A stretch of 64,000 nt of DNA, taken from positions 15,222 to 79,221 of the forward strand of contig JAGOVG010000001.1 of NCBI GenBank assembly GCA_018060845.1, read 5' to 3'. The position numbers and the translations under genes were made by a program. The stretch is from Candidatus Woesebacteria bacterium. Lineage in GTDB: Bacteria; Patescibacteriota; Microgenomatia; UBA1400; UBA12108. Within the stretch, counting starts at the first letter, position 1; every line of letters starts with the position of its first letter. Positions 345-56,012 of the stretch are shown one piece after another. The notes under the pieces were generated by a model. That model worked only from the letters and a program-made list of their open reading frames with translations, was not told the origin of the DNA and did no database searches.

Positions 345-2480
345 TTAGGCATTCTCGGCTTCTTTTGCCTTTAGCTCTTCGAGGCTGTGGATCAAGATAG
401 TGCGTGGTTTGGCACCCTCCTGCTGTCCAACTACTCCGGCAGTCTCGAGCTGATCCATGATACGTGCAGCTTTGTTGTAACCGAGTGACATTTTGCGTTG
501 CAAGAAACTGGTGCTAGCACGGCCGGCGGCAATCACCACATTAACTGCGTCCTCAAATTCTGCGTCGCGCTGCGTTGAGGCACCTACATCATCGCCAGTA
601 ATATACTTTTCGGTGACTTCTTCTTGGTATTTAACATCACCTGGCTCGGTTTTTTTGAGGTAGTCGATTAAAGCTTTGATCTCGTCGTTGGTCACGTAGG
701 TGCCCTGAATACGGGTCGGGAGTGGACGATCGGGTGGCACATATAACATGTCACCACGGCCGAGTAGTTTTTCTGCTCCAGGACTATCGATGATGACACG
801 GCTGTCGATCATGCTGGCCACGTTAAAGGCAATACGAGTTGGGATGTTGGCTTTGATCAGACCCGTAATAACGTTCACAGAGGGCCTTTGAGTTGCTAAG
901 ACTAAGTGGATACCTGTCGCACGAGCCATCTGGGCGAGGCGCACAATCAAGTCCTCGACTTTCGTTGGAGCTGAGAGCATGATGTCAGCGAGCTCGTCGA
1001 TCACAATCACGATATATTCCATAGCAGTAAAGCCGGAGAGTTCGTTATACTCCTCGACGTTTCTGACCCCGACCTCGGCAAACATTTTGTAGCGCTTGTC
1101 CATCTCTTTGGTGGCCCAGGTGAGAGCAGCGACAACCTGATCAGTGTTGGTGATAACGGGAGTCAGCAAATGTGGGATGCCGTTATAGCCGGTTAGCTCG
1201 ACTCTTTTTGGATCGACTAAGATAAAGCGCAGCTCCTGCGGAGAGTTGCGATAGAGGAGAGTTGTGATGATAGTGTTAATACAAACAGACTTACCGGAGC
1301 CGGTCGAACCAGCAACCAAGATGTGGGGCATTTTTTTGATATCGGCAATAATTGGTGCACCAGAGACGCCCAGACCCAGTCCTACTGCGAGTCGAGATTT
1401 TTCTTTTTTCATGTCGGGGTGAGTCATGATCTCTTGCAAGGTCACATATTCTGGTGAGCGGTTGGGGATCTCGAGACCTACGAGATTACGACCAGGGATT
1501 GGGGCTTCGATACGAATCTGACCGGTGGGGGCGGCGAGCGCGAGCGCTAGGTCGGTGGATAAGCCTTTGATTTTGCTGAGCTTGGTGCCCTCGGCAATGC
1601 GGATTGCATACTGGGTCACGGCGGGGCCACCATTTACCTCCATTACTTTGGCTCTAATACCAAAAGAGTCGAGAGTACTCTCGATGATGCTTGCGTTCTC
1701 TTTGATGTCTCCGCGATCGGCTTTGGCACCTTTTTGGGCAGAGAGCAGGTTTAGGGATGGATACTTCCAGATTTTGGTAGTGCCATCTTTGACGCCGGTT
1801 AGAGTAGTCTCAAATTCGTGGGTAGGATTTTTGTCTTTGGGTGCTGCCTTGGCAGCTTTAGCTGGCTCAACGGCAGGTACCGCCGTGTTACTGGGGATAT
1901 TAATCTTGGTTTCGGCATCATCTTGGAAGAGTAGTTTGGTCGAGACTTTTTTCACTGGGTCCCCAAAATCATCTTTTTTGACAAACATCCAAGAGAAAAT
2001 AGTCTGAAAGCTACCGAGTAATCGACCCATACCCATAACCAGTTCTTCGAGTGGTGTATTAGTAATAACCATAGCGCCAATTAGGATAGTGGCACTACTG
2101 ATAATGTTTGAGCCAATGTTACCAACGAGCGCGCCTAAGGCCTCAGAAATAACTAACCCAAGCTCGCCTGCCTGACTAACGCCAAGGGATCCCATAAAAA
2201 CCAGTAGACCCCCGAGGAGTAGGTTGGGGGAGGCGATCGCCCATTTGAGCGACATCATCATGAGTCCAATTGAGATTAAAAGGAAAGGCAAAATTAGCAT
2301 GGTCCAGCCAAATGCTCTAAACAAGACCTGATAGATGTCGCTGAGAACTGGGCTACTACGGGTAAAGCTAAGCATGACTACGGCTGAGGCAACCAAGAAG
2401 AGGATCGAGACCACGCTATAGACAATCTCCTTGCGAAGCTTGAGTTTGAATGGGTTTTTGCGACGACCACGACGAGCCAT
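345..2480 (-). CDS. ftsK: DNA translocase FtsK/SpoIIIE
   Basis: N-terminal TM helices, Walker A GSTGSGKSVCIN, and a C-terminal gamma winged-helix (ASTSFLQRKMSLGYNKAARIMDQLE). The ORF extends to 2525; the likely start is MARRGRRK at about 2480. Confidence 0.93.
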   Translation of the reverse strand: MARRGRRKNPFKLKLRKEIVYSVVSILFLVASAVVMLSFTRSSPVLSDIYQVLFRAFGWTMLILPFLLISIGLMMMSLKWAIASPNLLLGGLLVFMGSLGVSQAGELGLVISEALGALVGNIGSNIISSATILIGAMVITNTPLEELVMGMGRLLGSFQTIFSWMFVKKDDFGDPVKKVSTKLLFQDDAETKINIPSNTAVPAVEPAKAAKAAPKDKNPTHEFETTLTGVKDGTTKIWKYPSLNLLSAQKGAKADRGDIKENASIIESTLDSFGIRAKVMEVNGGPAVTQYAIRIAEGTKLSKIKGLSTDLALALAAPTGQIRIEAPIPGRNLVGLEIPNRSPEYVTLQEIMTHPDMKKEKSRLAVGLGLGVSGAPIIADIKKMPHILVAGSTGSGKSVCINTIITTLLYRNSPQELRFILVDPKRVELTGYNGIPHLLTPVITNTDQVVAALTWATKEMDKRYKMFAEVGVRNVEEYNELSGFTAMEYIVIVIDELADIMLSAPTKVEDLIVRLAQMARATGIHLVLATQRPSVNVITGLIKANIPTRIAFNVASMIDSRVIIDSPGAEKLLGRGDMLYVPPDRPLPTRIQGTYVTNDEIKALIDYLKKTEPGDVKYQEEVTEKYITGDDVGASTQRDAEFEDAVNVVIAAGRASTSFLQRKMSLGYNKAARIMDQLETAGVVGQQEGAKPRTILIHSLEELKAKEAENA

Positions 2481-2540
2481 ATGAGTTCCAATGTACACAA
2501 ATCTCAAATGTACACAAATGTGCACAAATGGGGAAAGTGT

Positions 2541-6396: not shown

Positions 6397-7559
6397 GGAG
6401 TCTGAGCAGAACTAGTAGCAGGAGTGGGGGTAGGTGAGACTAGAGCACTACTTACAAATGTTTTGAGTATTTCGTCCATCTCTTTGATGATGTTTACATC
6501 ATATTTGGCAGGGACATAATAGGTTACCCCACCAAAGTCGGTAGGAGTCGTAAAGTAAGGACCCTCTGCTTCTTTGTCGCAGAAGAAGAACGTTGATTTC
6601 TCCCCTTCGTTTTGATTAAAGTAACGGCGCATAACGAGATTAGCTTTGGTAGTAAATTCGGTATATTCTTTGTTTCGTAAATCACCTGATGAACCCTGGA
6701 ATGCAGGACTATCTTTAAACAGACAGACGGCACCACCGACAGGAGCCTGATACACCTTAATCTCGTAGTTGTTACGATAAATCGAGACCGTCAGAGTACC
6801 ATTTTCGGAGCTTTCTTTGACTGCCCAAGATTGTGGATGCGAAACAGAGAAAGCGGGATATGCTAGTGCATCAATTTTGCTAGTTACATATTCGACCCAA
6901 TCTATGCCAAGACCTGTTGTGGAGGTTAGCTTGAAAGTGGACAAGACGTTTCTGTATTCTTTGAGCAAACTCTCGCTGCTGATCGCATTTTTGCCGCCAG
7001 CTGGGAGTAGTCTAAAAATATAAATCTTGTCCTGGATCTGCGCATAGGTGATAACTGGTTGAAGACTCGTCTTAGGCCAACTCTCACTCCGCTCAAATGC
7101 ATCGTGATCCCCTACTTTGACTGGACTGGTCTTACTGCTGGTCCTACCATCCTGGAGAGTGCCAAAGTATTCTTCGAGGTTGCTAGTGGTTGCTTTGAAA
7201 CTCTCTATCTCCATAATGGCTGGTTCGTCGGTCTGGACTATTAAGCGACCTGATTGATCGGGACTAGTCTCGACCACGCTCCACTTAGGCGGGAGCGCGA
7301 TGCTATAAAAATGTGGTGTGTTGGTATAGCTGACGTATCCAGGAGGCGCATCTACCTGCTCTCCACCATTCGTTGTAGGAGCCTGGGTGCTACTCCTGCT
7401 AAAGAACGTAATGCCGAGCGCGAGGGAGACCAAGATGGCGGCGACTCCACCCAGAATGTAGGGTAGCCTGTTAGGTTTTTTGGCGTCAGCGACAGGGAGG
7501 ACTGGGGTCGTTTCGAGGATTGGAGCGGTCTGATTTTGAACGGGAGTATTTTCGGTCAT
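6393..7559 (-). CDS. Hypothetical membrane-anchored extracytoplasmic protein
   Basis: One N-terminal TM helix, no recognisable motifs. ATGA overlap with the L,D-transpeptidase gene suggests one operon. Confidence 0.5.
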   Translation of the reverse strand: MTENTPVQNQTAPILETTPVLPVADAKKPNRLPYILGGVAAILVSLALGITFFSRSSTQAPTTNGGEQVDAPPGYVSYTNTPHFYSIALPPKWSVVETSPDQSGRLIVQTDEPAIMEIESFKATTSNLEEYFGTLQDGRTSSKTSPVKVGDHDAFERSESWPKTSLQPVITYAQIQDKIYIFRLLPAGGKNAISSESLLKEYRNVLSTFKLTSTTGLGIDWVEYVTSKIDALAYPAFSVSHPQSWAVKESSENGTLTVSIYRNNYEIKVYQAPVGGAVCLFKDSPAFQGSSGDLRNKEYTEFTTKANLVMRRYFNQNEGEKSTFFFCDKEAEGPYFTTPTDFGGVTYYVPAKYDVNIIKEMDEILKTFVSSALVSPTPTPATSSAQTP

Positions 7560-7589
7560 AGCAAAATTGTACTACAGATTAGACACTTA

Positions 7590-7632
7590 CAGAAAAGCTC
7601 TCTAGTTACCCAGAGAGCTTTTCTTTTTACTT
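7590..7632 (-). terminator. Rho-independent terminator downstream of pnp
   Basis: Hairpin GCTCTCT-gggtaact-AGAGAGC followed by a U-tract on the minus strand. A T-tract on the plus strand also follows it. Confidence 0.5.
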
Positions 7633-7654
7633 TGTAATTACCTAATTACTAGTT

Positions 7655-9856
7655 TTAGCGACGAGGACGGAATCCGCCCCTGTCTCCACCGCGTGATCCC
7701 CCGCCAAAGCCACCGCTTCTGCGTGGACCACCAAAGCCACCTCGACCACCGCGATCTTCGCGAGGAGCCTCAGGCTTTAACTGGTCGAGTGGGACCATGG
7801 AGAGATCTACTCTGCCCTGATCGTCAACTCCTTTGACCCAGACGTGCACAGAGTCGCCTTCTTTGACAAGGCTACTGGCATCCTGGACATACTCAGCGCT
7901 CATGCGAGAGACGTGGACGAGACCCTGCTTGCCTGGGGCAAACTGCACAAAGCAGCCATAACCCTCGACACGAGTCACCTTGCCATCGTATTCTTCGCCA
8001 GCTTCTGGGACATGTACCATTCCCTTGATCCAGTTAACGGCTTTGTCCATCCCCTCGGGATCGACGCCGCTGACTGTGACTTTGCCGACACCTGTTGCAT
8101 CGTCGATATCGACATCTGCACCAGTCTCACTCATGATGAGCTTGATGTTTTTGCCTCCTGGGCCGATGATCTCGCCGATTTTGTCGGTTGGGATCTCGAA
8201 CTGGACGATCTTAGGAGCGTATTTACTCATCTCTTTTCTTGGTTCAGGAATAGCTTTGAGCATGACGTCCATGATCTGCATACGAGCGTCTTTGGCCTGG
8301 GCTAATGCCTGGGTCAAGACTTCGAAGCTGATGCCGCTGACCTTGATATCCATCTGGAGGGCGGTGATACCGTCGCGAGTACCTGCAACTTTAAAGTCCA
8401 TATCGCCAACGTGATCTTCGATACCAGCAATGTCAGTTAAGACAACGCTCTTTTTACCATCAGTCATTAGACCCATGGCTATACCAGCTACTGGTTTTTT
8501 CAGTGGGACACCGGCGGCCATAAGAGCCATACAGGAGCCACAGACACTAGCTTGGCTGGTACTACCATTACTACTCATAACCTCAGACACTACGTGAATA
8601 GTGTAAGGGAACTCTAGTTCGGATGGGAGCATGGGGACAATGGCTCTCTCAGCGAGTGCACCGTGACCAATCTCCCTCCTACCTGGAGCACCAAAACGAC
8701 CAGTTTCGCCTGATGCATAAGGAGGCATGGCATAGTGGTGGATGTAGCGCTTGACTGTCTCGGTTTCCATTGACTCGATGATCTGACCGAGTGAAGGAGC
8801 ACCGAGGGTGGCAATGGATAAGACCTGAGTCTGACCACGCTTAAACATGGCGCTTCCGTGGGGGCGAGGAAGAATGTCTACCTCGGCCTCTAGTGGTCGG
8901 ATCTCGACAGTCTTACGACCATCGACACGAATCTCTTCGTTGATAGTCATGGCACGAGTCTGCTCGGCTAAGACATCGTGAACGATCTCGCCTAGTTGTT
9001 TGCCATCGAGTTTGTCGGTGTATTCTTCTTTAAGTTTACCTACAAATTCTTCGATCAAACCATCCTCAGCCTGAGGAACGCCTAGTTTGGCACGAACATC
9101 TTTGCTTATTTTGTTGCTAACTTCATCTCTTAACTCTTGGGGAATAGTTTCTTTGGTTTCGAAGACCAATTTTTCTTTTCCTACTAGCTTTCTTAGCTCA
9201 TTGATTGAGACGATGATCTTTTTGATCTCGTCGTGGGCAAAAGCTAAGGCTTTTAACGTCTCTTCTTCGGTTACTTCGTTAGCACCGGCTTCGACCATTA
9301 CTATAGCTTCGGCAGAACCGGAGACGACTAGATCTAGCTTGGAGGTAGCGCGCTGCTCGTAGGTAGGATTGGCGACAAAGGCACCATCGATCATACCAAC
9401 ACGGACACCAGCAATAGGACCTTCCCAGGGGATGTTACTGATGTGGAGAGCGGCAGAGGTTGCGACTAGTCCTGGCATATCGGCGTCGTTACTACCATCG
9501 GCAGATAGGACGGTTGCGATAACCTGAACATCTCTTTTGACGTTCTTAGGGAAAAGTGGGCGGATAGAGCGGTCGATAATGCGACCTTTTAGAACTGCGT
9601 CATCACTAGGACGACCATCGCGCTTAACCCAGCGACTACCCTTGATTTTGCCACCAGCGTATAGCTTTTCGGCAAAGTCCACAGAGAGTGGGAAATATGA
9701 GAGAGTGGTGTCACTCTTGCCCATCACGGTTGTGACGTGGACAACAGTATCACCATAAGTTACGAGAATAGCGGCATTAGCCTGCTCGGAAAACTTCCCG
9801 TATTCGAGTATAAGATCTTGGCCACCCACCTGGGCGACGACTTTTGTAGACTGCAT
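7655..9856 (-). CDS. pnp: Polynucleotide phosphorylase with a C-terminal RGG/GGF-rich disordered tail
   Basis: Two RNase PH domains, KH and S1. Unusual C-terminal roughly 48 aa: REDRGGRGGFGGPRRSGGFGGGSRGGDRGGFRPRR. Confidence 0.95.
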   Translation of the reverse strand: MQSTKVVAQVGGQDLILEYGKFSEQANAAILVTYGDTVVHVTTVMGKSDTTLSYFPLSVDFAEKLYAGGKIKGSRWVKRDGRPSDDAVLKGRIIDRSIRPLFPKNVKRDVQVIATVLSADGSNDADMPGLVATSAALHISNIPWEGPIAGVRVGMIDGAFVANPTYEQRATSKLDLVVSGSAEAIVMVEAGANEVTEEETLKALAFAHDEIKKIIVSINELRKLVGKEKLVFETKETIPQELRDEVSNKISKDVRAKLGVPQAEDGLIEEFVGKLKEEYTDKLDGKQLGEIVHDVLAEQTRAMTINEEIRVDGRKTVEIRPLEAEVDILPRPHGSAMFKRGQTQVLSIATLGAPSLGQIIESMETETVKRYIHHYAMPPYASGETGRFGAPGRREIGHGALAERAIVPMLPSELEFPYTIHVVSEVMSSNGSTSQASVCGSCMALMAAGVPLKKPVAGIAMGLMTDGKKSVVLTDIAGIEDHVGDMDFKVAGTRDGITALQMDIKVSGISFEVLTQALAQAKDARMQIMDVMLKAIPEPRKEMSKYAPKIVQFEIPTDKIGEIIGPGGKNIKLIMSETGADVDIDDATGVGKVTVSGVDPEGMDKAVNWIKGMVHVPEAGEEYDGKVTRVEGYGCFVQFAPGKQGLVHVSRMSAEYVQDASSLVKEGDSVHVWVKGVDDQGRVDLSMVPLDQLKPEAPREDRGGRGGFGGPRRSGGFGGGSRGGDRGGFRPRR

Positions 9857-9879
9857 GAGATTTTTAACCGGACCCCTCG

Positions 9880-10146
9880 TTATTTGGCGAGGTTGAGGGT
9901 CTTGACCAGGGCACGATAACGGTCTTCGACGCTAGTTCTCAAATAGTTGAGAAGACGACGACGTTTAGAGACCATTTTCAGTAATCCGCGGCGAGAATGA
10001 TTGTCCTTTTTGTGAACCTTCAAGTGCTCAGTGAGCTCCTTGATTCGCTCAGTCAAGAGGGCAATCTGCACCTCGGGAGATCCAGTGTCTCCTTTCGTTG
10101 TTGCAAATTTTTTAATAATTTTGGATTTGTTATCGTCTTTTAGCAT
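9880..10146 (-). CDS. rpsO: 30S ribosomal protein S15
   Basis: [38 protein letters not shown] is classic S15. Conserved rpsO-pnp order. Confidence 0.95.
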
Positions 10147-10230
10147 GGTTTTTGTTGATCAAATTATGATTAATATTGGTGTATTGTAACTTACGAGGGG
10201 CAATCTGGCAATCACTAGATACTTACCAGG

Positions 10231-10497
10231 TTAATAAACCTGGTTGTGAGTGCCTACATCATAAAAAATTAAGATCCCGTCCTTTTCACCATATACGACT
10301 CTGTAATCTCCTGTAATACTAAATGCTCTCTTGCCAATTTTTGTGCCTGTTAACGCGTGATCTCGAATCAGAGGATCTTTAGGATTAGTTTGGAAAAGCT
10401 TGAGACGCTCGGCAAATTTTTTGGATAGACTAGAGCTTGGCAAGATTCTTTTCTTGAAGGATTTCTCAAAATATTTAGAAAATTTAATTTTCTTCAT
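10231..10497 (-). CDS. Type II toxin of the RelE/ParE superfamily, YafQ-like mRNA interferase
   Basis: C-terminus RDHALTGTKIGKRAFSITGDYRVVYGEKDGILIFYDVGTHNQVY matches the YafQ/RelE core (H.L.G....R..H.....L.Y......L...GTH). Confidence 0.78.
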   Translation of the reverse strand: MKKIKFSKYFEKSFKKRILPSSSLSKKFAERLKLFQTNPKDPLIRDHALTGTKIGKRAFSITGDYRVVYGEKDGILIFYDVGTHNQVY

Positions 10498-10840
10498 ACC
10501 CCAATTGCTTCATAAGATCGTCCACACCGGTTGCTGATTTAAAATTTTTACCTTTGGCTAAATCCTGATCCATCTTGTTATAACGATTAATTGCATCTTT
10601 GGAGAGTTTAACGGTGGATGGCTCAGAGTAGACATCGACACGTAGCGTGCCAGAGGAGAAGCGATGCATAATGACCCTCATCGCCTCTTGCAGACTAGAG
10701 AATCCCTGACTTAGCGCCATTTGGTGGGCGCTATCTCTTAGATCTGTGCTTACCGGTATTTGAACAACTGTTCTACTCATATGCATACAATTGTAATGTT
10801 TTGGTATGCGGTTGTCAATATATCGAGAGTTATCCTGCAC
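10484..10840 (-). CDS. RelB/DinJ-type antitoxin (ribbon-helix-helix), partner of the YafQ-like toxin
   Basis: Its stop overlaps the toxin start by 14 nt. RHH-like segment SRTVVQIPVSTDLRDSAHQMALSQGFSSLQEAMRVIMHRF. The true start is probably the internal MHMSRT at about 10786. Confidence 0.62.
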   Translation of the reverse strand: MQDNSRYIDNRIPKHYNCMHMSRTVVQIPVSTDLRDSAHQMALSQGFSSLQEAMRVIMHRFSSGTLRVDVYSEPSTVKLSKDAINRYNKMDQDLAKGKNFKSATGVDDLMKQLGYEEN

Positions 10841-10949
10841 AGCCGCGAATAACGCAAAGATATCCTAACCTTGGAGGTTACTATTCAACTATCATCGATA
10901 TTAGATTCAATACCTGAACTCAACTCAAATTATAAATAACTAACGCAGA

Positions 10950-11309
10950 TTAATTTTTCCTTGGCAAAAGTGGAGAATTTTTCTTTAATCTTGTTGGAAT
11001 TTTGTTAACCATAGGAGCAATTATATGAAAAACCTCAATTTGACCTTGATCTAACCCATGTTTAATAGTAGAAAGAGCATCATTTAGCCCTGAAAGATAT
11101 TCTCTCGCTGCTACTAATGTGATACTCGATAAAGCGTAAATCGTTTCTTTTGGAAGTTCTTGCAGGAGCATTACTGCAACTGTTGCCCTGTGTTGCATAG
11201 AGATTTCGTGAGGATTAAGGCCTAATGTAAGTGATACTTCTTTTTCAAAGAGAGCACTCCCCAACACTTCCTCTTCGCTAGCGTGAACTTCTCCACCGAT
11301 AATTTTCAT
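10950..11309 (-). CDS. Hypothetical protein, possibly the detached DHHA1-like C-terminal part of the upstream DHH-like gene
   Basis: Starts 8 nt after the stop of the DHH-like ORF. An N-terminal GGEVHAS stretch weakly recalls the DHHA1 GGGH motif. Weak call. Confidence 0.35.
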   Translation of the reverse strand: MKIIGGEVHASEEEVLGSALFEKEVSLTLGLNPHEISMQHRATVAVMLLQELPKETIYALSSITLVAAREYLSGLNDALSTIKHGLDQGQIEVFHIIAPMVNKIPTRLKKNSPLLPRKN

Positions 11310-11317
11310 ACTCGTCT

Positions 11318-12214
11318 TTAGTTATTGTTTTGTTTACTCTTATAGATCTTTGGCTTGAGCCAATCAGCCTGTGGTTCAGCAACTGGCTGCCCCACTTCGC
11401 TTACAGCTTCGGTTGGGGTCTTCGCTTCGCTTCGAGTGTCAATATCTATAATGGGCATGTCAGCGACAATCTTGGCCTGCTGAGGAACGATGGTCTTAAC
11501 CTGGCGACGAGCGCCGGTTCGATAGAGAACGGCCAAGGCTTCGAAAGTATCTGCCGTCATGTTGGGACTACCAAGATTATCAGTACCTGCTTCGATGCCG
11601 ATCATGAGGTTGTTGGCGATATCGACGTCCATGGGGAGAGCTAGCTCTTTGAGGAGTGCTGTAACTAACTCGCTATTACTACTAGATGGGTCTGCGATAT
11701 TGATGGCACCAAAGCTACTAACCTGGTTGCTAACGTTGGCGATAGTTGATTTGCTAAAGAGCTCGATTTCTTTTTCGGCTAGACTACCCACATCTTTCAA
11801 ATCAGCTGCACCAATCACGATTATGAGATCAGCAACAGCGCCAGAATAGCCAAAGACAATATCTTTTTCGGTGACTGGCTCGGCACCTTCTCTCGGATTA
11901 ATGATGAGGTTAAGATGGCCTCCTTCGGTATTACTGGTAACTTTGTCGACCCTATCTTCGGGAACATTTAAGGTTATTACTAGGTTGTTACCACCGAGGT
12001 CTGTACTCACTTTATCAAGCCCTACTAGGTGTGAGTCGCGGACGGTTACAGGGTTACTGGCAACAACGGCGACTTTTTTGCCACTAGTTTTGAGTGAGAG
12101 GTAAAAAGCGAGAGCAGCGGCGATACTATCTTGATTGGGGTTAGCCGCAAAAGTAATGAGAACTGAGTTAACCTCTTGGATTTTGGCTTTGAGAGCGTTT
12201 AGTTGATCTTGCAT
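11318..12214 (-). CDS. DHH-superfamily-like protein (NrnA-like fold) with a degenerate catalytic motif
   Basis: Layout resembles NrnA/DHH phosphoesterases, but the motif reads ITFAANPNQDSIAAALA instead of HxxPDGDA and no DHH triad is seen. It may be an inactive paralog. Confidence 0.5.
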   Translation of the reverse strand: MQDQLNALKAKIQEVNSVLITFAANPNQDSIAAALAFYLSLKTSGKKVAVVASNPVTVRDSHLVGLDKVSTDLGGNNLVITLNVPEDRVDKVTSNTEGGHLNLIINPREGAEPVTEKDIVFGYSGAVADLIIVIGAADLKDVGSLAEKEIELFSKSTIANVSNQVSSFGAINIADPSSSNSELVTALLKELALPMDVDIANNLMIGIEAGTDNLGSPNMTADTFEALAVLYRTGARRQVKTIVPQQAKIVADMPIIDIDTRSEAKTPTEAVSEVGQPVAEPQADWLKPKIYKSKQNNN

Positions 12215-48170: not shown

Positions 48171-48368
48171 TTACTTACTCCTGTTATATGGAGATTGATT
48201 TGTTGGCTTGAGTGAAACACCTATATGACCAGCTCTTGACTGAACTGCGTCTGGTGTCCGACCAAGCTTAAGACCGATGACTCTAGTAGGCGTATTCTGC
48301 CTTACTAGTGATCTAAGTTGTGACTCCTGTGAAGAAGTCCAAGGTTTATTGTTATTTTTGGGTGACAT
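48171..48368 (-). CDS. Small GcrA-N-terminal-like HTH protein
   Basis: WTSSQESQLRSLVRQNTPTRVIGLKLGRTPDAVQSRAGHIGVSL follows the GcrA N-terminal pattern W-T-xE-x3-L-...-IA-x2-LG-x-T-x-NAV-x-gK-x-hRLGL. SD GGAGCT precedes the start. Confidence 0.45.
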   Translation of the reverse strand: MSPKNNNKPWTSSQESQLRSLVRQNTPTRVIGLKLGRTPDAVQSRAGHIGVSLKPTNQSPYNRSK

Positions 48369-48530
48369 AATAGCTCCTTATATTTGCCTTCTACCCACCA
48401 GAGAGAGCTTGCTAAAAATTTAATAGTGTAGAATACTAGTCTTGATGTAGAACTGAGAGGAGTGAGTAATTCATTCCTCTCTTTTCGTATTCTGTCGCCA
48501 ATTGTTTTTTGGCATGTTTAATCCTTTGGC

Positions 48531-48558
48531 TACAAAAACCTCCCTTAACCGGGAGGTT
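48531..48558 (-). terminator. Rho-independent terminator ending the hsdR-to-ORF150 operon
   Basis: On the minus strand: CCTCCC-ggttaa-GGGAGG followed by TTTTTGT, about 135 nt downstream of the ORF150 stop. Confidence 0.55.
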
Positions 48559-48692
48559 GCCTTGTTCCCGCTTAAGCGGTTGTGGTGATTAAGAATTACT
48601 TCGCGTCATCATAACTTGAAAACTATCCTAACGAATATTACACATACCATGCAACCACTAGATCTATATCAAAGTAGTGCAACTTAATTTCT

Positions 48693-49145
48693 TCATCCTG
48701 AAATATCTACAATCGCTTTAACTCTGTTTTTGTCGACCCTGTGTATCTGGATGGCCTTACGATTGGCAGATATTTCCATTGCGAGGCGATTAAGGATGTA
48801 CATACGGATATTTTTCTCAGTCATATCCTCATATTTCACAGTCGTAACTAGGTAATTATTTATAGTTTGTACATCTTCAACAGTCACCTTGAAATGTTTT
48901 GAGGTTGTATTCTCATAATCTAGAGCATTATGAATGAGTCTAGCGTTGTACCAGTTGCCATACGACTCAAATACGTTATATGTGAATTCTCCGGGGAAGA
49001 GGTCGTTTAGTGATTTAAGAAAGTCAACAGTTTTTCGAAGAACTATAGACTTTGCTAGTTGAAAAACCTGCTCTATGAATCTAAATACCCAAACCATTGC
49101 ATCCACTATTGGATCACTAGGCTCTTTAATCTTCTTTTTCTTCAT
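48693..49145 (-). CDS. Hypothetical protein (last gene of the R-M-linked operon)
   Basis: ORF with 20-nt overlap to the FtsK-gamma gene. No recognised motif. Confidence 0.4.
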   Translation of the reverse strand: MKKKKIKEPSDPIVDAMVWVFRFIEQVFQLAKSIVLRKTVDFLKSLNDLFPGEFTYNVFESYGNWYNARLIHNALDYENTTSKHFKVTVEDVQTINNYLVTTVKYEDMTEKNIRMYILNRLAMEISANRKAIQIHRVDKNRVKAIVDISG

Positions 49146-49479
49146 ATTTTCTTAGAACATCTCTAGGTTTTACTCCCTCTGCCTTACTAACGACCCCTTC
49201 TTTTTCTAGTTTTTCCATAATCATTGCTGCTTTGTTGTATCCATGTGACATACGGCGTTGTAGGTATGACACACTGGCTTTGCCTGCGTCAGATATGACT
49301 CTCCATGCCTCGTTATATTCTTCATCAGCTATCGTAGTAAAGGGATTTGCGTAAGGAATATCAATTTCATCTTCATCTTCTCTTGGCTCGGTATAAAGTA
49401 AATAAGCCACCATCTTCTCGAGGATTAATACACGATTGGTTAATTCATCTACTTGCTTCATTAATTGATCATCGCTCAT
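49126..49479 (-). CDS. Standalone FtsK gamma-domain (winged-helix) protein
   Basis: C-terminal 58 aa EEYNEAWRVISDAGKASVSYLQRRMSHGYNKAAMIMEKLEKEGVVSKAEGVKPRDVL align almost residue-for-residue with the FtsK C-terminus at 345-2480 (ASTSFLQRKMSLGYNKAARIMDQLETAGVVGQQEGAKPRTIL). Confidence 0.75.
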   Translation of the reverse strand: MSDDQLMKQVDELTNRVLILEKMVAYLLYTEPREDEDEIDIPYANPFTTIADEEYNEAWRVISDAGKASVSYLQRRMSHGYNKAAMIMEKLEKEGVVSKAEGVKPRDVLRKYEEKED

Positions 49480-49487
49480 ACGCCTCC

Positions 49488-50163
49488 TTAGAATGGTAAA
49501 TCACTCTTAGTATTCCGATACCTTTCATTAACATGCCGATACTTACAAAACCGGCAATCCTCATTCTCATTGGGGATTGGGCCAGTGATGAGCGTATTGA
49601 TCTCATCCATAAATTTGGTGAAAGATGACTCGTCGATTGGGACTTCGAGCCACTTGGGTGGGAAAGTTAGAGTGGCAACTCCATTATCGAACTTTACCTG
49701 ATCGGGATACATGACAATAAGACCCATTTGGGTGATGCGAATTGGTTCGTCATGCCTGGGATGTTCCATGGCGAATTTGTAGGAATAGAGCTGGGTCTTA
49801 TATTTATCGATTTTGTCCACATGTGGCTGAGATAGCTTAAAGTCTACTAAAAGATATGTACCATCTCGACGTTTAACTAGTAGGTCATATTTGCCTTTGA
49901 GATACAGCTCTGTGCCGGGTATAACGATAGACTCCACAAATCCCCTCCTGCTTCTCAACGATTCCCTCTGGTAGACTTGGGGATAGGGCACGCAACTCTT
50001 TACCAACTAGCGTTCCTTGTAAGCGAGTATTGATAGCTGAGAAGATCCCTGGCATGGGCATTTGAGGCCTCATAACCTGATCGTGGACTTTCATCCAATA
50101 ACATCGTTTACACTCTTCATATAAATAGGCAAAATCTGATGGAGAGAGTTTGCATTGATGCAT
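49488..50163 (-). pseudogene. Cas4-like/RecB-family PD-(D/E)XK nuclease with Cys cluster, interrupted by a 1-nt frameshift
   Basis: N-terminal ORF has SPSDFAYLYEECKRCYW (Cas4 YCPRrfY-type). C-terminal ORF, in another frame, has GKYDLLVKRRDGTYLLVDFKLS (D...D/ExK), TQLYSYKF (QxxxY) and a C-terminal CRFC. The two frames would join by deleting one C in the CCCC tract at 49942-49945. Confidence 0.65.
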
Positions 50164-50165
50164 AG

Positions 50166-50759
50166 TTATGAGTTCTTCTCTCGTATCTCTTCCTCTAAGG
50201 ACTTCAATGTAGATTCAAATAGTGTCATAAATTCGTCAGTTTTCCCATTAGTTGCTCCGTACAATTCCATCCAAAGCCCTTCTGCATCTTTATTGCCGAT
50301 TCTATTAGTCGGATCGTCCCATTTAGATTCGTAAAAGATTTCAAAATCTATTGCATATCTTTTTATCAGGTCTAGGATTGATTGAATGTATTTAGTTTTA
50401 TCTTTTCCCCATAAGGCGTCGGCTCTGAGCTTTAATATTCTGAGATGACTATTAGTTTCTATTACGTCATTAAGTCTTGCTGCATGTTCACTGTAATGTG
50501 CATCACGTTGTTTTTCCACATCCTTCATAATATCTTGTTGATATCTATAAAATCTTCCTCTCGCATGTATGAGCTTTTCTTCTATCTCATACACACATTC
50601 CATAATTTCAAGTGATAATTTGTATTCATCTTGACCTTTTACTTGCTTCTTCCATGTTGACAACCCTTGATACGCTATCCATACTCCAAAACCTACTAGG
50701 AGAGAGTTAACTAATTCTAGATTTAACATGTTTAATAGACATGGTAGATTAATTAACAT
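50166..50759 (-). CDS. Hypothetical protein with N-terminal TM helix, directly downstream of hsdMS
   Basis: Lies 4 nt after the hsdMS stop. N-terminal hydrophobic helix (LVNSLLVGFGVWIAYQGL), then a charged helical domain with no recognised motif. Confidence 0.45.
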   Translation of the reverse strand: MLINLPCLLNMLNLELVNSLLVGFGVWIAYQGLSTWKKQVKGQDEYKLSLEIMECVYEIEEKLIHARGRFYRYQQDIMKDVEKQRDAHYSEHAARLNDVIETNSHLRILKLRADALWGKDKTKYIQSILDLIKRYAIDFEIFYESKWDDPTNRIGNKDAEGLWMELYGATNGKTDEFMTLFESTLKSLEEEIREKNS

Positions 50760-50763
50760 ATCA

Positions 50764-53163
50764 TCATTCTGACCATAAATTAGATAAAAGTAAATCTACT
50801 TTTTGCTCATATATTTCAACTAGTTGTCGCACGTTATCGACTAACATATATTCTGAATTAATATTTTTAATTATTTCGATTTGAGTTTCAGCCGAGGGAA
50901 AAGGTACTTCAATATCTTCTATTTGAGATTTACTTATTGAATCAAATACTGCACCTCCGTTTCCTACTATTTCCTTTTCAATCATTTTCAAATATGTAAA
51001 TAAAAACATCTGATTTATCTTTATTGGTTTTATTGCTGCCAGACCTCTCCCTATACAGATTTGTTCTGTAGTAATGTTTACGGGTCCAACAGGTGCTCGA
51101 ACTGACATCAGAATATCACCCTTATCTGCAACCTTAGATGTTTTTGTAGTCCACTTCGTAGGCTTCCGTAGATAGACATCTCCAAATTCTGTTTTGCCTT
51201 GATAAAATGCCATCCCTTGCTCAGAATCGTTATAATACTTTCCTTCTGGTGATTGGCCTGCAATAACATTAGCAACTTCGTGTAATTTGACTTTATTCCA
51301 AAGCTTATTAATTTCTATACTAGGTTTCCAATTATTTTTTATTAGCAGAGCCCCATTTATAATTTTCTGATAATTATCTATCTTTGCAACGATTTGATCC
51401 TGAATTTCAATTGATGGTAAGGGTATATTAAACTGTCCTAAATCACTAGTTTTCATTGTTACATTTGCTGCTCCACTCATCAATTTCGCCATTTCCTTCT
51501 TAACACTATTTAATACGTAATACAGGTATTTAGTATTCAATTGGCTCGCATCAATGGGCACTAGCAGAGCTAATAAATTAGCAAGAGCAAACTTTCCTGT
51601 TGTGTAATGTATCCTCTTTATATCGGCTTTCCCGTGTCCCGTTGCGGAAATTAGAGGAACAGCAACTCCTTCGCCCTCAAAATCAAAATGATCTGATGAT
51701 TTTATTATTTCTGCAGTTAAATATAATTTGTATGGACCATTTTCAGTTTTAGTGCTTGATGACTTTCCTTTTACTATTGTGCAAATTTCCGCTAAAGGTA
51801 CATACTTAATATCTGTACTTACAACATCTCTTTTTTTATATTTTAATAATGAAAGATTATAGTTATTATTTATTATTTCTTGTTTATTTATAATTGAAGA
51901 TAAGTGATTAGGTTTGATTTTCGTACTACTTTGGTAAGCTTTAATTATTTTGAGAGCAACTTCTAAATCGTTTTCTTTTATAATTTTTTGAGTTGCGCCT
52001 AGACTTACTCCAGTGCTATGGATATCTATAAATATAAGGTTGTCATTCAGATTATTAAGAGCCTTATCAAAAACTAATATAGAAGTTTTTACTCCTGAAT
52101 ATGGTTGAAATACTCCACTTGGAAGACTAATGACAGCATACAATCCATCATTAATAAGATTTTTACGTAACTCAGTATGGGATTTTCCAGTTTGGAAAAT
52201 AATACCTTCTGGAACAATAATTGCAGCTCTCCCGTTTGGCTTTAAATGATTCATTATGTAGTCAACAAACAATACCTCTGAACGACTAGATTGAATACTG
52301 AATTTGCTGTGTGGAGTAATTCCTCCTTTTGGAGACATGAAAGGAGGATTGGCTAAGATAACATCAAACTTATCATTCCAACGTTCATCTTGTGACAGTG
52401 AGTCGTACTGAAATATTTTTGGGTTCTTAAATTGATGAAGATACATATTTACCTGAGCTATACGGACCATCCCTGGATCAATATCATATCCTTCAAAGTT
52501 ACCCATCATTTTCCTGCGCTCGTCAGGTGTTAGCGCTTTTTCTTTCTTATCTGGATCATTTTTCCCATCATGCTTCTCAAGTATGTGAAGGAAGGATTTG
52601 ATTAAGAATCCTCCTGTCCCACAAGCTGGGTCTAGCACCTTATCATCCTTAGTTGGATTTACAACATCTACCATGAAATCAATAATGTGTCGTGGAGTTC
52701 TAAACTGTCCGGCGTCCCCTTGACTAGACATGATTGAAAGTAGATATTCGTAGGCATTGCCAAGCTCTTCTGGATGAGAGTAATCAAAGAATCCTATTTC
52801 TTTAAGAAATAGTCCTAGTGTTTCTGGTGAACGATATGGTAAAAATGCAGATTTGAATATGCCTCTAAATAACTCTGGGAGCTGTTTAGATTCGGAGAAC
52901 TTAACTAATGCCTCGGCATATAAATTCATTCTCTCCTGATTACCGAGCCGTGAGTCCATAATTCTAGTCCATGCGTATTTCTCTAGGTCACCGACAAAGA
53001 AGGCTGGCTCTCCACCTACTTTCACCGAAGCTTGATCTATATCGTCCATGAACTTGTAGATTAGAGCAGTAGTGATTTGATCAATCTGAGATGTCGGATT
53101 GGGAACCACCCCTACAAGCACTTGTCGTGCCGCGTCTATATGTCTTTTAGTGTCTGTATTCAT
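50764..53163 (-). CDS. hsdM: Type I R-M fused methyltransferase-specificity subunit (HsdM-HsdS fusion)
   Basis: HsdM_N helices, motif I DPACGTGGFL, motif IV ILANPPF. Two HsdS-type TRDs follow, each ending in a conserved spacer helix (LPLPSIEIQDQIVAKID; VPFPSAETQIEIIKNINSEY). Confidence 0.85.
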   Translation of the reverse strand: MNTDTKRHIDAARQVLVGVVPNPTSQIDQITTALIYKFMDDIDQASVKVGGEPAFFVGDLEKYAWTRIMDSRLGNQERMNLYAEALVKFSESKQLPELFRGIFKSAFLPYRSPETLGLFLKEIGFFDYSHPEELGNAYEYLLSIMSSQGDAGQFRTPRHIIDFMVDVVNPTKDDKVLDPACGTGGFLIKSFLHILEKHDGKNDPDKKEKALTPDERRKMMGNFEGYDIDPGMVRIAQVNMYLHQFKNPKIFQYDSLSQDERWNDKFDVILANPPFMSPKGGITPHSKFSIQSSRSEVLFVDYIMNHLKPNGRAAIIVPEGIIFQTGKSHTELRKNLINDGLYAVISLPSGVFQPYSGVKTSILVFDKALNNLNDNLIFIDIHSTGVSLGATQKIIKENDLEVALKIIKAYQSSTKIKPNHLSSIINKQEIINNNYNLSLLKYKKRDVVSTDIKYVPLAEICTIVKGKSSSTKTENGPYKLYLTAEIIKSSDHFDFEGEGVAVPLISATGHGKADIKRIHYTTGKFALANLLALLVPIDASQLNTKYLYYVLNSVKKEMAKLMSGAANVTMKTSDLGQFNIPLPSIEIQDQIVAKIDNYQKIINGALLIKNNWKPSIEINKLWNKVKLHEVANVIAGQSPEGKYYNDSEQGMAFYQGKTEFGDVYLRKPTKWTTKTSKVADKGDILMSVRAPVGPVNITTEQICIGRGLAAIKPIKINQMFLFTYLKMIEKEIVGNGGAVFDSISKSQIEDIEVPFPSAETQIEIIKNINSEYMLVDNVRQLVEIYEQKVDLLLSNLWSE

Positions 53164-53165
53164 AT

Positions 53166-55742
53166 TTATAGATTAGTTAAGTTGTACGCGTAATCGTGAA
53201 TGTATTGTGGTACAACAGTTGAGTATCCATTTAACCTCTGGTACTCATCAAAAGTAAAGCTCGATTCGGTGTTAAATCGCCCAACTTGGCGACTTGCGAC
53301 GATTTCTCTCACCTTTTCATCAGATGCATAGGCTTTGAAGTACATTTTTACGGCGTCGTAGTGTTCTTGGTCAACTGGGTTAACCTCCATAAACTTGCCC
53401 CATTCAGACTCTAATAGGTCATCTTTCATCTCAAAAGCATCTTTGTCTCCAAATGCTACCTGAAGGAATTCTTTGACAGTAATGCGTCTATCGACACTAA
53501 ATATCTTTCTTATTTTGTCTAGGTTGAGGAAATGTTTTGGCTTATCAAAGATATTCTTCTTAGCAAAATCTTCTGCTGCCTCAATGTCACCATTCTCCCA
53601 CATATTTTTGAGAGTTTTGTTTCCAAGCACATCTTCGTCAATCGCACGCTTGAATCCTTCTCTATCAATCTTCATTCCCTCCACCCCGATTGCAGTCTCA
53701 GCGACTGAGACAACTTCATCTCTAGTAGCAAGATCGATGGGACCGTTAAATACTTTGTGACCATTTTCATCTACATAGTCGCTACTAGATGATACTTCAA
53801 CACCAATCTCAGTGACGGGAACTTTTTTGATGTTTGGTAATTTTATCTTTTCGTCATACTCAAATTCTTTTTCAAAATATTCACAAGTAGCGAAGAAATC
53901 AAAGAACTTAAATTGTTTTTTGGGGATCGAGATTGTTTCGTTATTGGTGTAGTCGTGATAGTCGAAGGAGTATTTCCTAGTTCCACGCCCCTTAATCTGT
54001 ACAAAATCGGCAGGACTAAAGACTGGGCGCATCAGAGCAATGTTAAGCAGATCCTGACAATCGTAGCCAGTCGTCATCATTCCGACTGTTACGGCTACGC
54101 GAGTTTTACTTGTATCGTATCCTTCTGGACTTTTAATCTGTCCACCAAGCTTATTATTTGCAAAGTTGATTGTCATTTGTTGTGCACTTTGAACTTGAGA
54201 AGTAACTTGTACTGCAAAGTCTGACTCACTATAAAGCTTTGGCCATTTTTCCATTGCTAGTTTATTGAGAATATTTGTGACGTGAGCCGCATGGCGCTGC
54301 GATACGCAGAATACGATAGATTTACCAAATAGCTGAATGTCGAACTTACTAGCAATAGGATCGAAGAACCCGTTATCAAGAAATGCTTTGGACATGGCAA
54401 TATTTGTTTCTTCATTAAAGAACTTACGCTCGTAGTGACGCTCATTAAAGACCTCGTCAATACTTTCGCCGTCTTCTCCGGTTGTGTGGACTGAATACCC
54501 TTCACCAGATAAAAGTTGAGTTGTGATCTCGGTGCGAGCATCAACTACCGTAGGTTGGATTAAATAGTCTTCTTTCGAACCCTGAACGAGATCATATGAG
54601 AAGGTTGGGTTGCCAGACTCACAGCCGAAGGTTTTATATGTATCCAGAAGAAGTCTTCGTTCGTATTCTCTTTGACTATCGTTGCTTTCACCGCTATCCA
54701 GCCCTTTTAGATAATTCTTGGGTGTAGCAGTAAGTCCAAGCTTATATCCGACAAAATATTCAAATACAGCCCGACTATTTCCTCCGATTGAGCGGTGAGC
54801 TTCGTCAGATATCACAAGTTCAAAGTCGGTAGGAGAGAAATCCTTTCGATACCTATTGCCAGAAAGAAAAGTTTGAATTGTTGAAACAACGACACTTGCA
54901 TTTTGCCAGCTATCTTTTGTATTTTTGTATATTGCACAAGTAAAATCTTTGCCTAAATACTGGATAAAGGCTTTGTTTGCTTGGTCTTCAAGTTCTAGGC
55001 GATCTACTAGGAATAGTACTCTCCTTGCATTCCCAGATTTGAGGAAGAGCTTAATAACTGCGGCAGAAATTAGGGTTTTTCCTGTTCCTGTTGCCATCTC
55101 GAAAAGAAATCTTTGATTACCTTCTAAAGCAGATTGTTGAAGTGCCTTTAGAGCTTGAACTTGATATGGACGAAGTTGTTTAAGATTGTGTTTCTTGAGA
55201 TATGACGAACGAGTATTCTCATCTATAAATTCAGGAACTCTCGAATAATCTGGCATTTGAGTTGAGATAACATAGTTCGCATCAACGCTAGTGTTAGCTA
55301 GCTCTTCTGGGTCTGGAGTGTATTTCTGGTACTGACTGATTGAATCTTGAGTTGGGAATCGAGAGATTGTATCGGGGTTTCCATGTTTCGTATCCCAAAA
55401 ATAGTGAATATTCCCATTTGAGAGAATAATAAATCGAGCTCCGCAATTACGTGCGTAGTTACGAGCTTGCTCTTTGGCAGATAATGGGTCGACTGACTCT
55501 TTCTTTGCCTCTACTACGAGAAGTGGTCGTCCATCCTTATCTAACAAAAGGAAATCAATAAAACCATGCACTTCATGTTCAAAGTCATCTCCTAGCTCGG
55601 AGTACTTAATTCCTGGTTCGAGCTGAATGTTAGCTTTTCCGAGACTATTATCTACAAATCTCCAACCTGATTCCTCGAGAAGTTTATTTATTTTTATCCG
55701 AGCTTGAGCCTCTTTTTGCACCATGAGAGTATTGTACCCCAT
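53166..55742 (-). CDS. hsdR: Type I restriction endonuclease R subunit
   Basis: N-terminal PD-(D/E)XK (GFIDFLLLDKDGRPLLVVEAKKE), SF2 motor motifs (EMATGTGKT; VISDEAHRS), C-terminal helical domain. Starts 3 nt upstream of the hsdMS start. Confidence 0.9.
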   Translation of the reverse strand: MGYNTLMVQKEAQARIKINKLLEESGWRFVDNSLGKANIQLEPGIKYSELGDDFEHEVHGFIDFLLLDKDGRPLLVVEAKKESVDPLSAKEQARNYARNCGARFIILSNGNIHYFWDTKHGNPDTISRFPTQDSISQYQKYTPDPEELANTSVDANYVISTQMPDYSRVPEFIDENTRSSYLKKHNLKQLRPYQVQALKALQQSALEGNQRFLFEMATGTGKTLISAAVIKLFLKSGNARRVLFLVDRLELEDQANKAFIQYLGKDFTCAIYKNTKDSWQNASVVVSTIQTFLSGNRYRKDFSPTDFELVISDEAHRSIGGNSRAVFEYFVGYKLGLTATPKNYLKGLDSGESNDSQREYERRLLLDTYKTFGCESGNPTFSYDLVQGSKEDYLIQPTVVDARTEITTQLLSGEGYSVHTTGEDGESIDEVFNERHYERKFFNEETNIAMSKAFLDNGFFDPIASKFDIQLFGKSIVFCVSQRHAAHVTNILNKLAMEKWPKLYSESDFAVQVTSQVQSAQQMTINFANNKLGGQIKSPEGYDTSKTRVAVTVGMMTTGYDCQDLLNIALMRPVFSPADFVQIKGRGTRKYSFDYHDYTNNETISIPKKQFKFFDFFATCEYFEKEFEYDEKIKLPNIKKVPVTEIGVEVSSSSDYVDENGHKVFNGPIDLATRDEVVSVAETAIGVEGMKIDREGFKRAIDEDVLGNKTLKNMWENGDIEAAEDFAKKNIFDKPKHFLNLDKIRKIFSVDRRITVKEFLQVAFGDKDAFEMKDDLLESEWGKFMEVNPVDQEHYDAVKMYFKAYASDEKVREIVASRQVGRFNTESSFTFDEYQRLNGYSTVVPQYIHDYAYNLTNL

Positions 55743-55898: not shown

Positions 55899-55922
55899 CA
55901 TTTTGTCGGCGTCGACAAAATG
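55899..55922. promoter_or_regulatory. Palindromic operator-like site 1 upstream of hsdR (CATTTTGTCGGCGTCGACAAAATG)
   Basis: 24-bp inverted repeat with one mismatch. It sits inside a roughly 50-nt unit (TGACCATTTTGTCGGCGTCGACAAAATGATATTTGAC) that is repeated 90 nt downstream. Confidence 0.6.
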
Positions 55923-55988: not shown

Positions 55989-56012
55989 CATTTTACCGGC
56001 GCCGGTAAAATG
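55989..56012. promoter_or_regulatory. Palindromic operator-like site 2 (CATTTTACCGGCGCCGGTAAAATG), a perfect 24-bp palindrome
   Basis: Second copy of the unit (TGACCAACCATTTTACCGGCGCCGGTAAAATGGTTTTTGAC). Half-site CATTTT(A/G)(C/T)CGGCG. Confidence 0.6.

Follow-up and report, generated by a model that had tools for sequence, protein, structure and literature searches.

The gamma domain of FtsK is a well-characterised DNA-reading module, which recognises the polarity of the chromosome through the FtsK orienting polar sequences (KOPS) and switches on XerD. Here we describe a gene for a 117-amino-acid (aa) protein that carries this domain without the motor (49126-49479, minus strand), located in a 64,000-nucleotide stretch of DNA (hereafter the window) from Candidatus Woesebacteria bacterium (assembly GCA_018060845.1, contig JAGOVG010000001.1, positions 15,222 to 79,221). 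The protein has the identity and the fold of an FtsK gamma domain, belongs to a rare family that evolves under purifying selection, is encoded by the fifth gene of a restriction operon and has relatives that recur beside restriction and other defence genes. We tentatively read it as an oligomeric DNA-binding accessory of a mobile defence cassette, a proposal whose chances we put a little short of even.

The contacts made by gamma on its two partners have been mapped in Escherichia coli. It has been established that one KOPS is bound by three gamma domains, and that a covalent 3-gamma protein binds better than monomers do (PMC5052618, PMC3384302). The crystal structure of the XerD-gamma complex places the XerD contact at the end of helix 2, the following loop and the start of helix 3, with R1289 as the critical residue; the same surface also touches KOPS DNA, and gamma cannot bind KOPS and XerD simultaneously (PMC5052618). 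Residues 1289-1297 of the E. coli protein can stimulate recombination on their own, and an isolated gamma domain, or even this 9-mer, activates XerD once it is brought close, while R1280, which lies within the TEKRKA stretch, behaved as wild type in mutagenesis (PMC5052618). The R1300A and E1303A substitutions impair KOPS reading and not Xer activation (PMC2680272).

Compared with the gamma domains of FtsK and SpoIIIE (PF09397; 2J5P, 2VE8/2VE9, 5DCF), the window protein shares the fold, clear homology, the R-x4-GYN-[RK] motif and the acidic residues equivalent to E1303 and E1306, but lacks the transmembrane, linker, alpha and beta (ATPase) parts of the motor protein, so that only a lengthened helix and an acidic linker precede gamma; it also differs in having Met in the place of R1300 and in being encoded within a restriction operon. 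Activation of XerD without FtsK has a precedent in XafT, the XerD activation factor of the Vibrio satellite phage TLC-phi, an integrative mobile element that exploits Xer (IMEX) and is bounded by dif-type sites. XafT is a helix-turn-helix (HTH) protein of the DUF3653 type and not a gamma domain. Like XafT, the window protein is small, lies on horizontally acquired DNA and could in principle activate XerD without the FtsK motor; unlike XafT, its Pfam assignment is FtsK_gamma only, and no dif-type sites were found in the window. Gamma is used outside the translocase in the TerS-gamma fusion of the Bacillus phages Sam46 and Sam112, and single FtsK_gamma-like phage genes have no known role (PMC8190038). 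The window protein differs from the Sam46-type fusion by having no terminase domain and by its context, a chromosomal defence island. The engineered covalent 3-gamma trimer likewise joins several gammas without a motor, monomers binding KOPS weakly (PMC3384302), and natural 2-gamma, 3-gamma and coiled-coil-gamma proteins look like the same solution; multimerisation of the window protein, by comparison, is suggested by an amphipathic helix. Type I restriction-modification (R-M) operons with extra genes, and defence Cas4 nucleases, resemble the locus in that the gamma gene sits in a packed hsd operon beside a Cas4-like nuclease gene, but no PADLOC model matches the gamma protein or the 150-aa and 197-aa products of the same operon above noise. 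The literature that was searched held no paper tying gamma-only proteins to defence or restriction, and no described system of that kind with an FtsK gamma protein.

The first-pass annotation of the window had called this gene a standalone FtsK gamma domain, and the identification is confirmed. PF09397 covers residues 51-110 (E = 4.7e-23; a score of 81.1 bits, Pfam's gathering threshold being 30.6; positions 3-62 of the 63 in the profile), and the Pfam scan of the 117-aa protein returned no other domain. With the gamma model as the sole match, neither an FtsK alpha domain nor a RecA-type beta domain with its Walker A and B motifs is present, and the protein is thus not a DNA translocase. The window also holds a full-length chromosomal FtsK of 726 aa with alpha, beta and gamma parts by Pfam (345-2525, minus strand; the open reading frame (ORF) list extends it to a GTG at 2525, and 2480 marks the first ATG, Met16), whose gamma domain (aa 652-712; 390-572, minus strand) is the paralogue of the small gene. 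Residues 52-109 of the gamma protein match residues 654-711 of this FtsK at 33 of 58 positions (57%; BLASTP, E = 3e-20), a likeness that, on sequence, far exceeds generic HTH similarity, and no unrelated winged-HTH family was assigned.

An AlphaFold model built from 17 homologues (mean predicted local distance difference test score, pLDDT, of 81) divides the protein into three parts. Codons 3-30 (49390-49473) are predicted to form a long amphipathic N-terminal helix (KQVDELTNRVLILEKMVAYLLY; pLDDT around 85) with hydrophobic residues at a spacing of 3-4; codons 31-51 (49327-49389) specify an acidic, proline-containing linker that is predicted to be disordered (pLDDT 62-64, no secondary structure) and varies in length across the family alignment; and codons 52-110 (49150-49326) encode the winged helix, modelled as three helices and a wing with a pLDDT of 87-91. 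The best 13 PDB matches found by Foldseek are all FtsK gamma domains (target-normalised TM-score 0.73-0.90), the crystal-structure chains among them score 0.82-0.90, and on the solved gammas 2J5P, 2VE8 and 2VE9 the model fits with a TM-score of 0.85-0.90 and a root-mean-square deviation of 1.0-1.9 Å.

The family to which the protein belongs is rare. A search of 5.8 billion proteins recovered 16 full-length homologues of 112-143 aa, which are 50-95% identical, and two outliers, of which P0017 is a truncated FtsK comprising the end of the beta domain and gamma, and P0018 a small gamma protein of 123 aa that is more distantly related. In all, some 20 sequences are known, every one from uncultured Patescibacteria-like metagenomes. 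The scan of GTDB representative genomes was dominated by FtsK gammas and contributed, among the matches listed, one further member (from the locus designated L010), and a scan of JGI metagenomes with the N-terminus only yielded four short contigs. The N-terminal helix follows the consensus K-Q-V-E-E-L-T-N-R-V-L-I-L-E-K-M-V-A-x-L-L-Y and is conserved to the same degree as the gamma domain, with 14 invariant positions within the first 29 residues of the 17-sequence alignment. Between the gamma gene of the window and its closest relative (L003; 92% nucleotide identity), dN is 0.027 and dS is 0.395, which gives a ratio of 0.07; pairs that lie further apart show saturation at synonymous sites, and their proteins are still 50-75% identical. 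Both observations argue that the gene is selected and is not a decaying fragment, and the reading frame is unbroken in all of the roughly 20 members. Constraint on the N-terminal helix is at least as strong as that on gamma: between L010 and L099, for example, pN is 0.04 in the helix and 0.21 in the gamma domain.

No full-length relative with the N-terminal helix of the family occurs in IMG/VR or among GenBank phages, which leaves a viral origin unsupported; PHROG families with gamma domains match the C-terminal half of the protein, and the one phage gamma that was looked at lies inside a 441-aa early-region protein. Plasmid matches were set aside as ordinary FtsKs encoded on megaplasmids. Assembly GCA_020049755.1 (L001 and L099) carries both gamma subfamilies on different contigs, but its contig numbers exceed 21,000 and it behaves as a metagenome assembly, in which the same assembly does not mean the same genome.

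The residues through which gamma reads KOPS and touches XerD were traced by a phmmer alignment to the E. coli domain (2J5P). The segment RQFRIGYNR (1289-1297), which makes the XerD and DNA contacts, reads RRMSHGYNK in the window protein, E1303 and E1306 correspond to E89 and E92, and the equivalents of R1289 and E1306 together with the G, Y and N are invariant in 17 family members. The first-pass annotation had asked whether the XerD-contacting residues survive, naming the TEKRKA loop: the contact segment is kept, whereas TEKRKA has become SDAGKA, a loss that says little, because the R1280 mutant behaved as wild type. The KOPS-reading residue R1300 is replaced by M86. At this position R or K is present in 76 of 78 Patescibacteria FtsKs, compared with seven of the 17 family members, the other ten having I, M or L. 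Judged on these alignments, the family appears to have kept the DNA/XerD surface and to have relaxed or changed one KOPS-specific contact, a pattern that would fit Xer activation and, just as well, a DNA-binding role with changed specificity. Since Met stands in the place of the KOPS-reading arginine, the protein is probably not reading host KOPS in the manner of FtsK. The E. coli-type KOPS GGGNAGGG is not enriched in the window (six occurrences against 4.8 expected), and 64 kb is too small a stretch from which to derive the skewed octamers of the clade itself.

The genetic context gives the protein its interest. The GC content falls to 0.33-0.41 across 48-57 kb, compared with about 0.47 elsewhere, and this drop, together with the adjoining type I R-M genes, supports the earlier placement of the gene inside a horizontally acquired defence island. 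The operon, all of it on the minus strand, opens with hsdR (53166-55742; Pfam ResIII and HSDR_N; PADLOC REase_I, 1e-53) for the type I restriction subunit, and continues with a 799-aa HsdM-HsdS fusion that combines methylase and specificity functions (50764-53163; Pfam N6_Mtase, 1e-58, and Methylase_S; PADLOC MTase_I, 5e-100, and Specificity_I), in which N6_Mtase spans residues 132-445 and is followed by two Methylase_S target-recognition stretches. Next come a 197-aa gene without family matches (50166-50759), the gene for a Cas4-like four-Cys PD-(D/E)XK nuclease (49488-50163; Pfam PDDEXK_1) and, fifth in the operon, the gamma gene, all gaps from hsdR down to gamma measuring 2-8 nucleotides (nt). 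The gamma gene has a ribosome-binding site, AAGGAGG (49483-49489), 5 nt 5' of its ATG, which overlaps the stop codon of the Cas4-like gene, and it is itself overlapped by 20 nt by a 150-aa gene of no known family (48693-49145), a frequent but non-obligatory downstream partner. The 150-aa protein has no match in Pfam or PHROG, and its AlphaFold model (pLDDT 79) has no PDB match and no toxin-like fold; a weak PADLOC match to PDC-S19 was not trusted. A terminator-like hairpin with a T-run (CCTCCCGGTTAAGGGAGGTTTTT; 48534-48556) ends the operon.

In the window the reading frame of the Cas4-like gene is broken near 49945 by one surplus G in a G-run, a +1 frameshift that splits the gene into ORFs of 92 and 172 aa and that represents either a real pseudogene or a homopolymer assembly error. 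By nucleotide alignment the gene is intact (222-223 aa) in L007, L094 and L095, and the L007 orthologue is recognised by the PADLOC Cas4 model (1.9e-9). Beyond the operon, an intergenic block of about 200 bp (48393-48588) is 78% conserved with L007 (8498-8693) despite different flanking genes. This block contains back-to-back terminator-like hairpins (48534-48556 on the minus strand and 48455-48481 on the plus strand), which account for its conservation, and Rfam gave no match on 46-51 kb, block included. At the other end, the 307-bp gap 5' of hsdR holds two related perfect palindromes 90 bp apart, CATTTTACCGGCGCCGGTAAAATG (55989-56012) and CATTTTGTCGACGCCGACAAAATG (55899-55922), with no copy in any other locus fetched. 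By their sequence they look like paired operators for the restriction operon; as gamma or Xer sites they were rejected, being unique to this locus and dyad-symmetric, with nothing tying them to gamma.

Relatives of the gamma gene lie in comparable company. In L007 the order is hsdM-S, two unknown genes, hsdR, the intact Cas4-like gene and then gamma. In L003-5, a SNF2 helicase gene, type III Mod and Res genes and a DUF2779 nuclease gene on the opposite strand precede gamma and the 150-aa gene. L008 shows an MmeI/Eco57I-like enzyme, GmrSD, three unknowns, an FtsK-alpha ORF and gamma, and L009 a type III Mod gene, a Schlafen/AlbA-domain protein, Res, two small genes and gamma. Two further contexts are L010 (RmuC, an AddA-like gene, a Bro-N protein, a 729-aa unknown, a 92-aa ORF, a 64-aa HTH gene, gamma, a beta-like ORF and a DNA-alkylation-repair gene) and L099, a locus of the second subfamily (DUF2779, gamma, a beta-like ORF and, about 4 kb on, a large serine recombinase). 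This recombinase, of 530 aa (7021-8613; Resolvase, Recombinase and Zn_ribbon_recom), lies 3' of the gamma gene, and hints, from its sequence, that the L099 copy may sit on an integrative element.

Taken as a set, mutually non-homologous restriction systems of type I, III or IIG adjoin gamma in five of seven family contexts and in one distant relative; they differ in type or share only about 23% identity. In the window, L007, L003 and L099 the gene directly beside gamma encodes a nuclease, either Cas4-like or DUF2779. The distant relative comes from another lineage (L100): its helix/coiled-coil plus gamma protein P0136 (8001-8360, plus strand) converges, with a 4-nt overlap, on hsdR (8357-11410, minus strand) of a type I operon made up of hsdM, unknown genes, hsdS and hsdR; two other contexts of distant coiled-coil-gamma proteins lie on contigs too short to inform. 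None of 79 control Patescibacteria loci (1.25 Mb) held homologues of these R-M proteins, a figure that is indicative only, since ftsK lies at the centre of each control locus and the test loci supplied the queries. As a whole the region is pieced together, as a mosaic, from small exchangeable genes that lie distally in defence operons, and gamma is one of its recurrent occupants. The 150-aa gene, for instance, also follows a 251-aa gene in L096-98, and L094 and L095 neatly illustrate the replacement of one gene within an operon: their Cas4-like gene is 87% identical to that of the window, and an unrelated 84-aa protein (L094 3036-3290; L095 7743-7997) fills the gamma slot between the Cas4-like and the 150-aa genes. 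A 65-aa HTH protein (PHROG 323, 'transcriptional regulator, D5-like', E = 5.5e-9) is encoded at 48171-48368 (minus strand) in the window, at 8241-8435 in L010 and at 1173-1370 in L096; the window and L096/97 have it 3' of the 150-aa gene, and L010 has it 5' of gamma.

Proteins that carry gamma without a motor extend well beyond this family. When 1.84 billion representatives were searched exhaustively with a profile, 20,804 matches were obtained. The best 150 are mostly 110-300 aa long; they carry one to three gamma stretches and could not accommodate a motor. Among the sequences retrieved (P0025, P0027, P0030, P0031, P0054, P0070, P0090, P0136 and P0169) are proteins with two or three gammas in tandem, and a recurrent architecture in which an N-terminal helix (I-E-E-L-T ... 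N-x-Q-Y-T-D-I-M) precedes one or two gammas; this motor-less class has no members in IMG/VR. The window family seems to be part of a wider group, undescribed in the literature searched, of proteins that have one to three gammas and no motor. Given that three gammas bind one KOPS and that the covalent trimer binds better, natural proteins with several gammas, or with gammas held together by a helix, would plausibly be multivalent on DNA.

As to where the gene came from, the window FtsK shares 66-73% identity over its length with FtsKs from uncultured bacteria, of which one carries the label Microgenomates group, and is 40-53% identical to those of Saccharibacteria, Nomurabacteria and Paceibacterota, which makes the host a Patescibacteria-type bacterium; elsewhere the window encodes housekeeping proteins, among them PNPase, IF-2, NusA, DnaK/DnaJ, LepA and MurJ. 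Profile-profile alignment with hhalign shows that residues 20-111 of the family are collinear with 78 FtsK C-termini, including the last helix of the beta domain and the linker, where the host FtsK reads EIKALIDYLKKTEPGD and the family ILEKMVAYLLYTEPRED (family residues 20-41). The N-terminal part alone, aligned to FtsK without its gamma, falls in the identical register (P = 0.006), a result that is weak taken singly. At the positions of E. coli 1291, 1292 and 1296 the family has Met, Ser and Asn, each of which occurs in just 6-7 of 78 FtsKs, equal to the size of the host clade, a match by number only. Pieces of FtsK also abut gamma genes in relatives. A 159-aa ORF with the FtsK alpha domain only, 49% identical to the host alpha, overlaps the gamma start (L008 7535-8014; L090 180-659), and a beta-like ORF of 235-245 aa lies beside gamma on the opposite strand (L010 8997-9704 and L099 3296-4033, both minus). 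The two beta-like ORFs have lost Walker A, yet are 68% identical to each other, which suggests that their product may be a selected pseudo-ATPase. Because of the collinear alignment, the common Met, Ser and Asn and the abutting FtsK pieces, the gamma protein, whose closest similarity is to the FtsK of the clade, probably derived from the 3' end of that clade's own ftsK.

The proposal of an oligomeric accessory assembles these elements as follows. The C-terminal tail of FtsK, consisting of the lengthened last helix of the beta domain, the linker and gamma, would have become an independent, selected protein, whose 28-residue amphipathic N-terminal helix would oligomerise it, so that several gammas could jointly bind duplex DNA in the way that three gammas occupy one KOPS. 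The protein may then act as the targeting or regulatory subunit of a cassette made up of the restriction system, the Cas4-like nuclease, gamma and a small partner; its gene would be co-transcribed from the hsdR promoter, and would lie outside any dif-flanked element that exploits Xer. Several observations weigh against this picture. The basis for oligomerisation is a heptad-like pattern and a monomer model alone, and the Cas4-like partner is frameshifted in the window itself. L010 and L099 have no recognisable R-M genes adjacent to gamma; L094 has no R-M genes nearby either and, with the replacement of gamma by the 84-aa gene in L094 and L095, implies that the module needs neither gamma nor R-M strictly. 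Finally, a DNA-alkylation-repair gene lies 3' of gamma in the window, L009 and L010, and RmuC and the AddA-like gene are common to the window and L010 on the other side, so the association may partly reflect a shared chromosomal hotspot and not function. The control loci, chosen as described, temper the comparison further.

The competing explanation that fares best, unlikely as we take it to be, is that the free gamma contacts XerD away from the septum as an FtsK-independent Xer activator, moving or exchanging the island or its cassettes in the manner of IMEX or pdif modules. The nine-residue XerD-contact segment is kept, with the R1289 equivalent invariant in 17 of 17 members, and the loss of R1300 in most of them recalls the E. 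coli R1300A mutant, in which KOPS reading suffers and Xer activation does not (PMC2680272); an isolated gamma or the 9-mer suffices to activate a nearby XerD (PMC5052618), and the region is a mosaic of sharply bounded gene cassettes. The contact residues also touch DNA, however, so their conservation does not discriminate, and the sites that such exchange calls for did not emerge. The dif core ATAA-N6-TTATG has no match in the 64-kb window, and a relaxed 17-mer dif consensus has one chance-level match at 20877, 28 kb from gamma and without palindromic arms, both consensuses being proteobacterial and firmicute and possibly not that of the clade. Direct and inverted repeats around 45.5-59 kb do not rise above chance, no tyrosine recombinase was found among the window ORFs scanned, and the cumulative GC skew dips over the island with no terminus-type reversal in the window. 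Homology with the closest relatives (L003-L006) covers exactly 48702-49488, a 787-bp block of the gamma and 150-aa genes with nothing on either side, and a block that ends at the gene ends leaves no room for flanking sites; the cassette junctions are intergenic gaps of 2-9 nt or gene overlaps, too short for 28-bp sites. An IMEX lifestyle, which the first-pass annotation had put forward, is therefore unsupported here: on its sequence, the island shows no bounding by dif or dif-like sites of these consensuses.

It is also rather unlikely that the gene is a bystander at a hotspot, with a housekeeping or other role and a link to restriction that is positional and not functional. The window and L010 have a common gene order (RmuC and AddA-like, then a variable part, gamma and DNA-alkylation-repair) with unrelated cargo between, and the DNA-alkylation-repair gene stands 3' in L009 too. 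Against a mere shared address, the Cas4-like/gamma pair of the window is closest (73-80%) to the pair of L007, which lies in a different chromosomal context; the L007 metagenome-assembled genome carries two copies at two loci; the L003 copy, at 92% nucleotide identity, has only the 787-bp two-gene block in common; and the gene of the distant relative, from another lineage, likewise lies against a type I system. The gene was, moreover, not among the matches listed for most of the related genomes sampled, which points to an accessory rather than a core gene.

A transcriptional role seems improbable, whether as a regulator, as an antitoxin-like partner of the 150-aa gene or as a controller of the restriction operon. 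The protein is a small winged-HTH protein with a helix of the dimerisation type, its gene overlaps the downstream gene by 20 nt, and the 84-aa alternative occupant of its slot also looks small and helical. But the 150-aa gene is also found behind unrelated genes and gamma is found in its absence, gamma is placed distally in the operon, the palindromes upstream of hsdR have dyad symmetry where gamma targets are asymmetric, and the 150-aa partner has no toxin-like fold. Two particular forms of the idea were rejected: as an R-M controller (C) protein it would be expected to be an XRE HTH encoded 5' of the R gene, not a gamma domain encoded fifth in the operon, and a type II toxin-antitoxin pair with the 150-aa gene is contradicted by a pairing that is not obligate and by the lack of a toxin family or fold.

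Quite improbable is a decoy or competitor of FtsK, a free gamma that occupies KOPS or XerD and so disturbs the loading of FtsK or the resolution of dimers, for example in the service of a mobile island, through selfish addiction or manipulation of the host. The 57% identity to the host gamma, the retained DNA/XerD surface and the inability of gamma to hold KOPS and XerD together would suit such a role. Competition for KOPS, a possibility raised in the first-pass annotation, is nevertheless doubtful in view of the Met at the R1300 position (hydrophobic in ten of 17 members, R/K in nearly all FtsKs), which predicts weak KOPS reading; a competitor would also place a cost on a reduced genome, and yet purifying selection on the gene is strong in several lineages, and the linkage to Cas4-like and R-M genes is left unexplained. 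That the gene is a decaying remnant of a duplicated ftsK, for which the FtsK alpha-only and degenerate beta ORFs beside gamma genes in relatives and the frameshifted Cas4-like neighbour might speak, is hardly credible and effectively refuted by the dN/dS of 0.07, frames intact in about 20 members at 50-95% identity with synonymous sites saturated, the strong ribosome-binding site and the conserved family-specific N-terminal helix.

This lineage, then, has cut gamma off the motor, added a conserved helix to it and placed it repeatedly beside unrelated restriction systems and Cas4-like nucleases, and metagenomes contain many short motor-less proteins of one to three gammas. The main interest of the family is that, without an explanation so far, it recurs beside restriction systems and Cas4-like nucleases, which raises the question of whether defence systems borrow the chromosome's own reader of polarity or of Xer activation. 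A bolder reading than the one favoured here, and a long shot, is that these motor-less, helix-oligomerised gammas constitute an unrecognised accessory dedicated to restriction cassettes and other defence cassettes built on nucleases in reduced-genome bacteria, which would either read a polar, chromosome-specific word as a self/non-self or Chi-like stop signal, or serve as an Xer switch that exchanges cassettes. Under this speculative extension the word might signal to translocating restriction enzymes or Cas4-like nucleases as Chi does to RecBCD and AddAB, and the Xer route would need no recombinase of the element's own. If the link to defence should prove only positional, the family would still neatly exemplify how, in a reduced genome, the 3' end of an essential gene gave rise to a new one.

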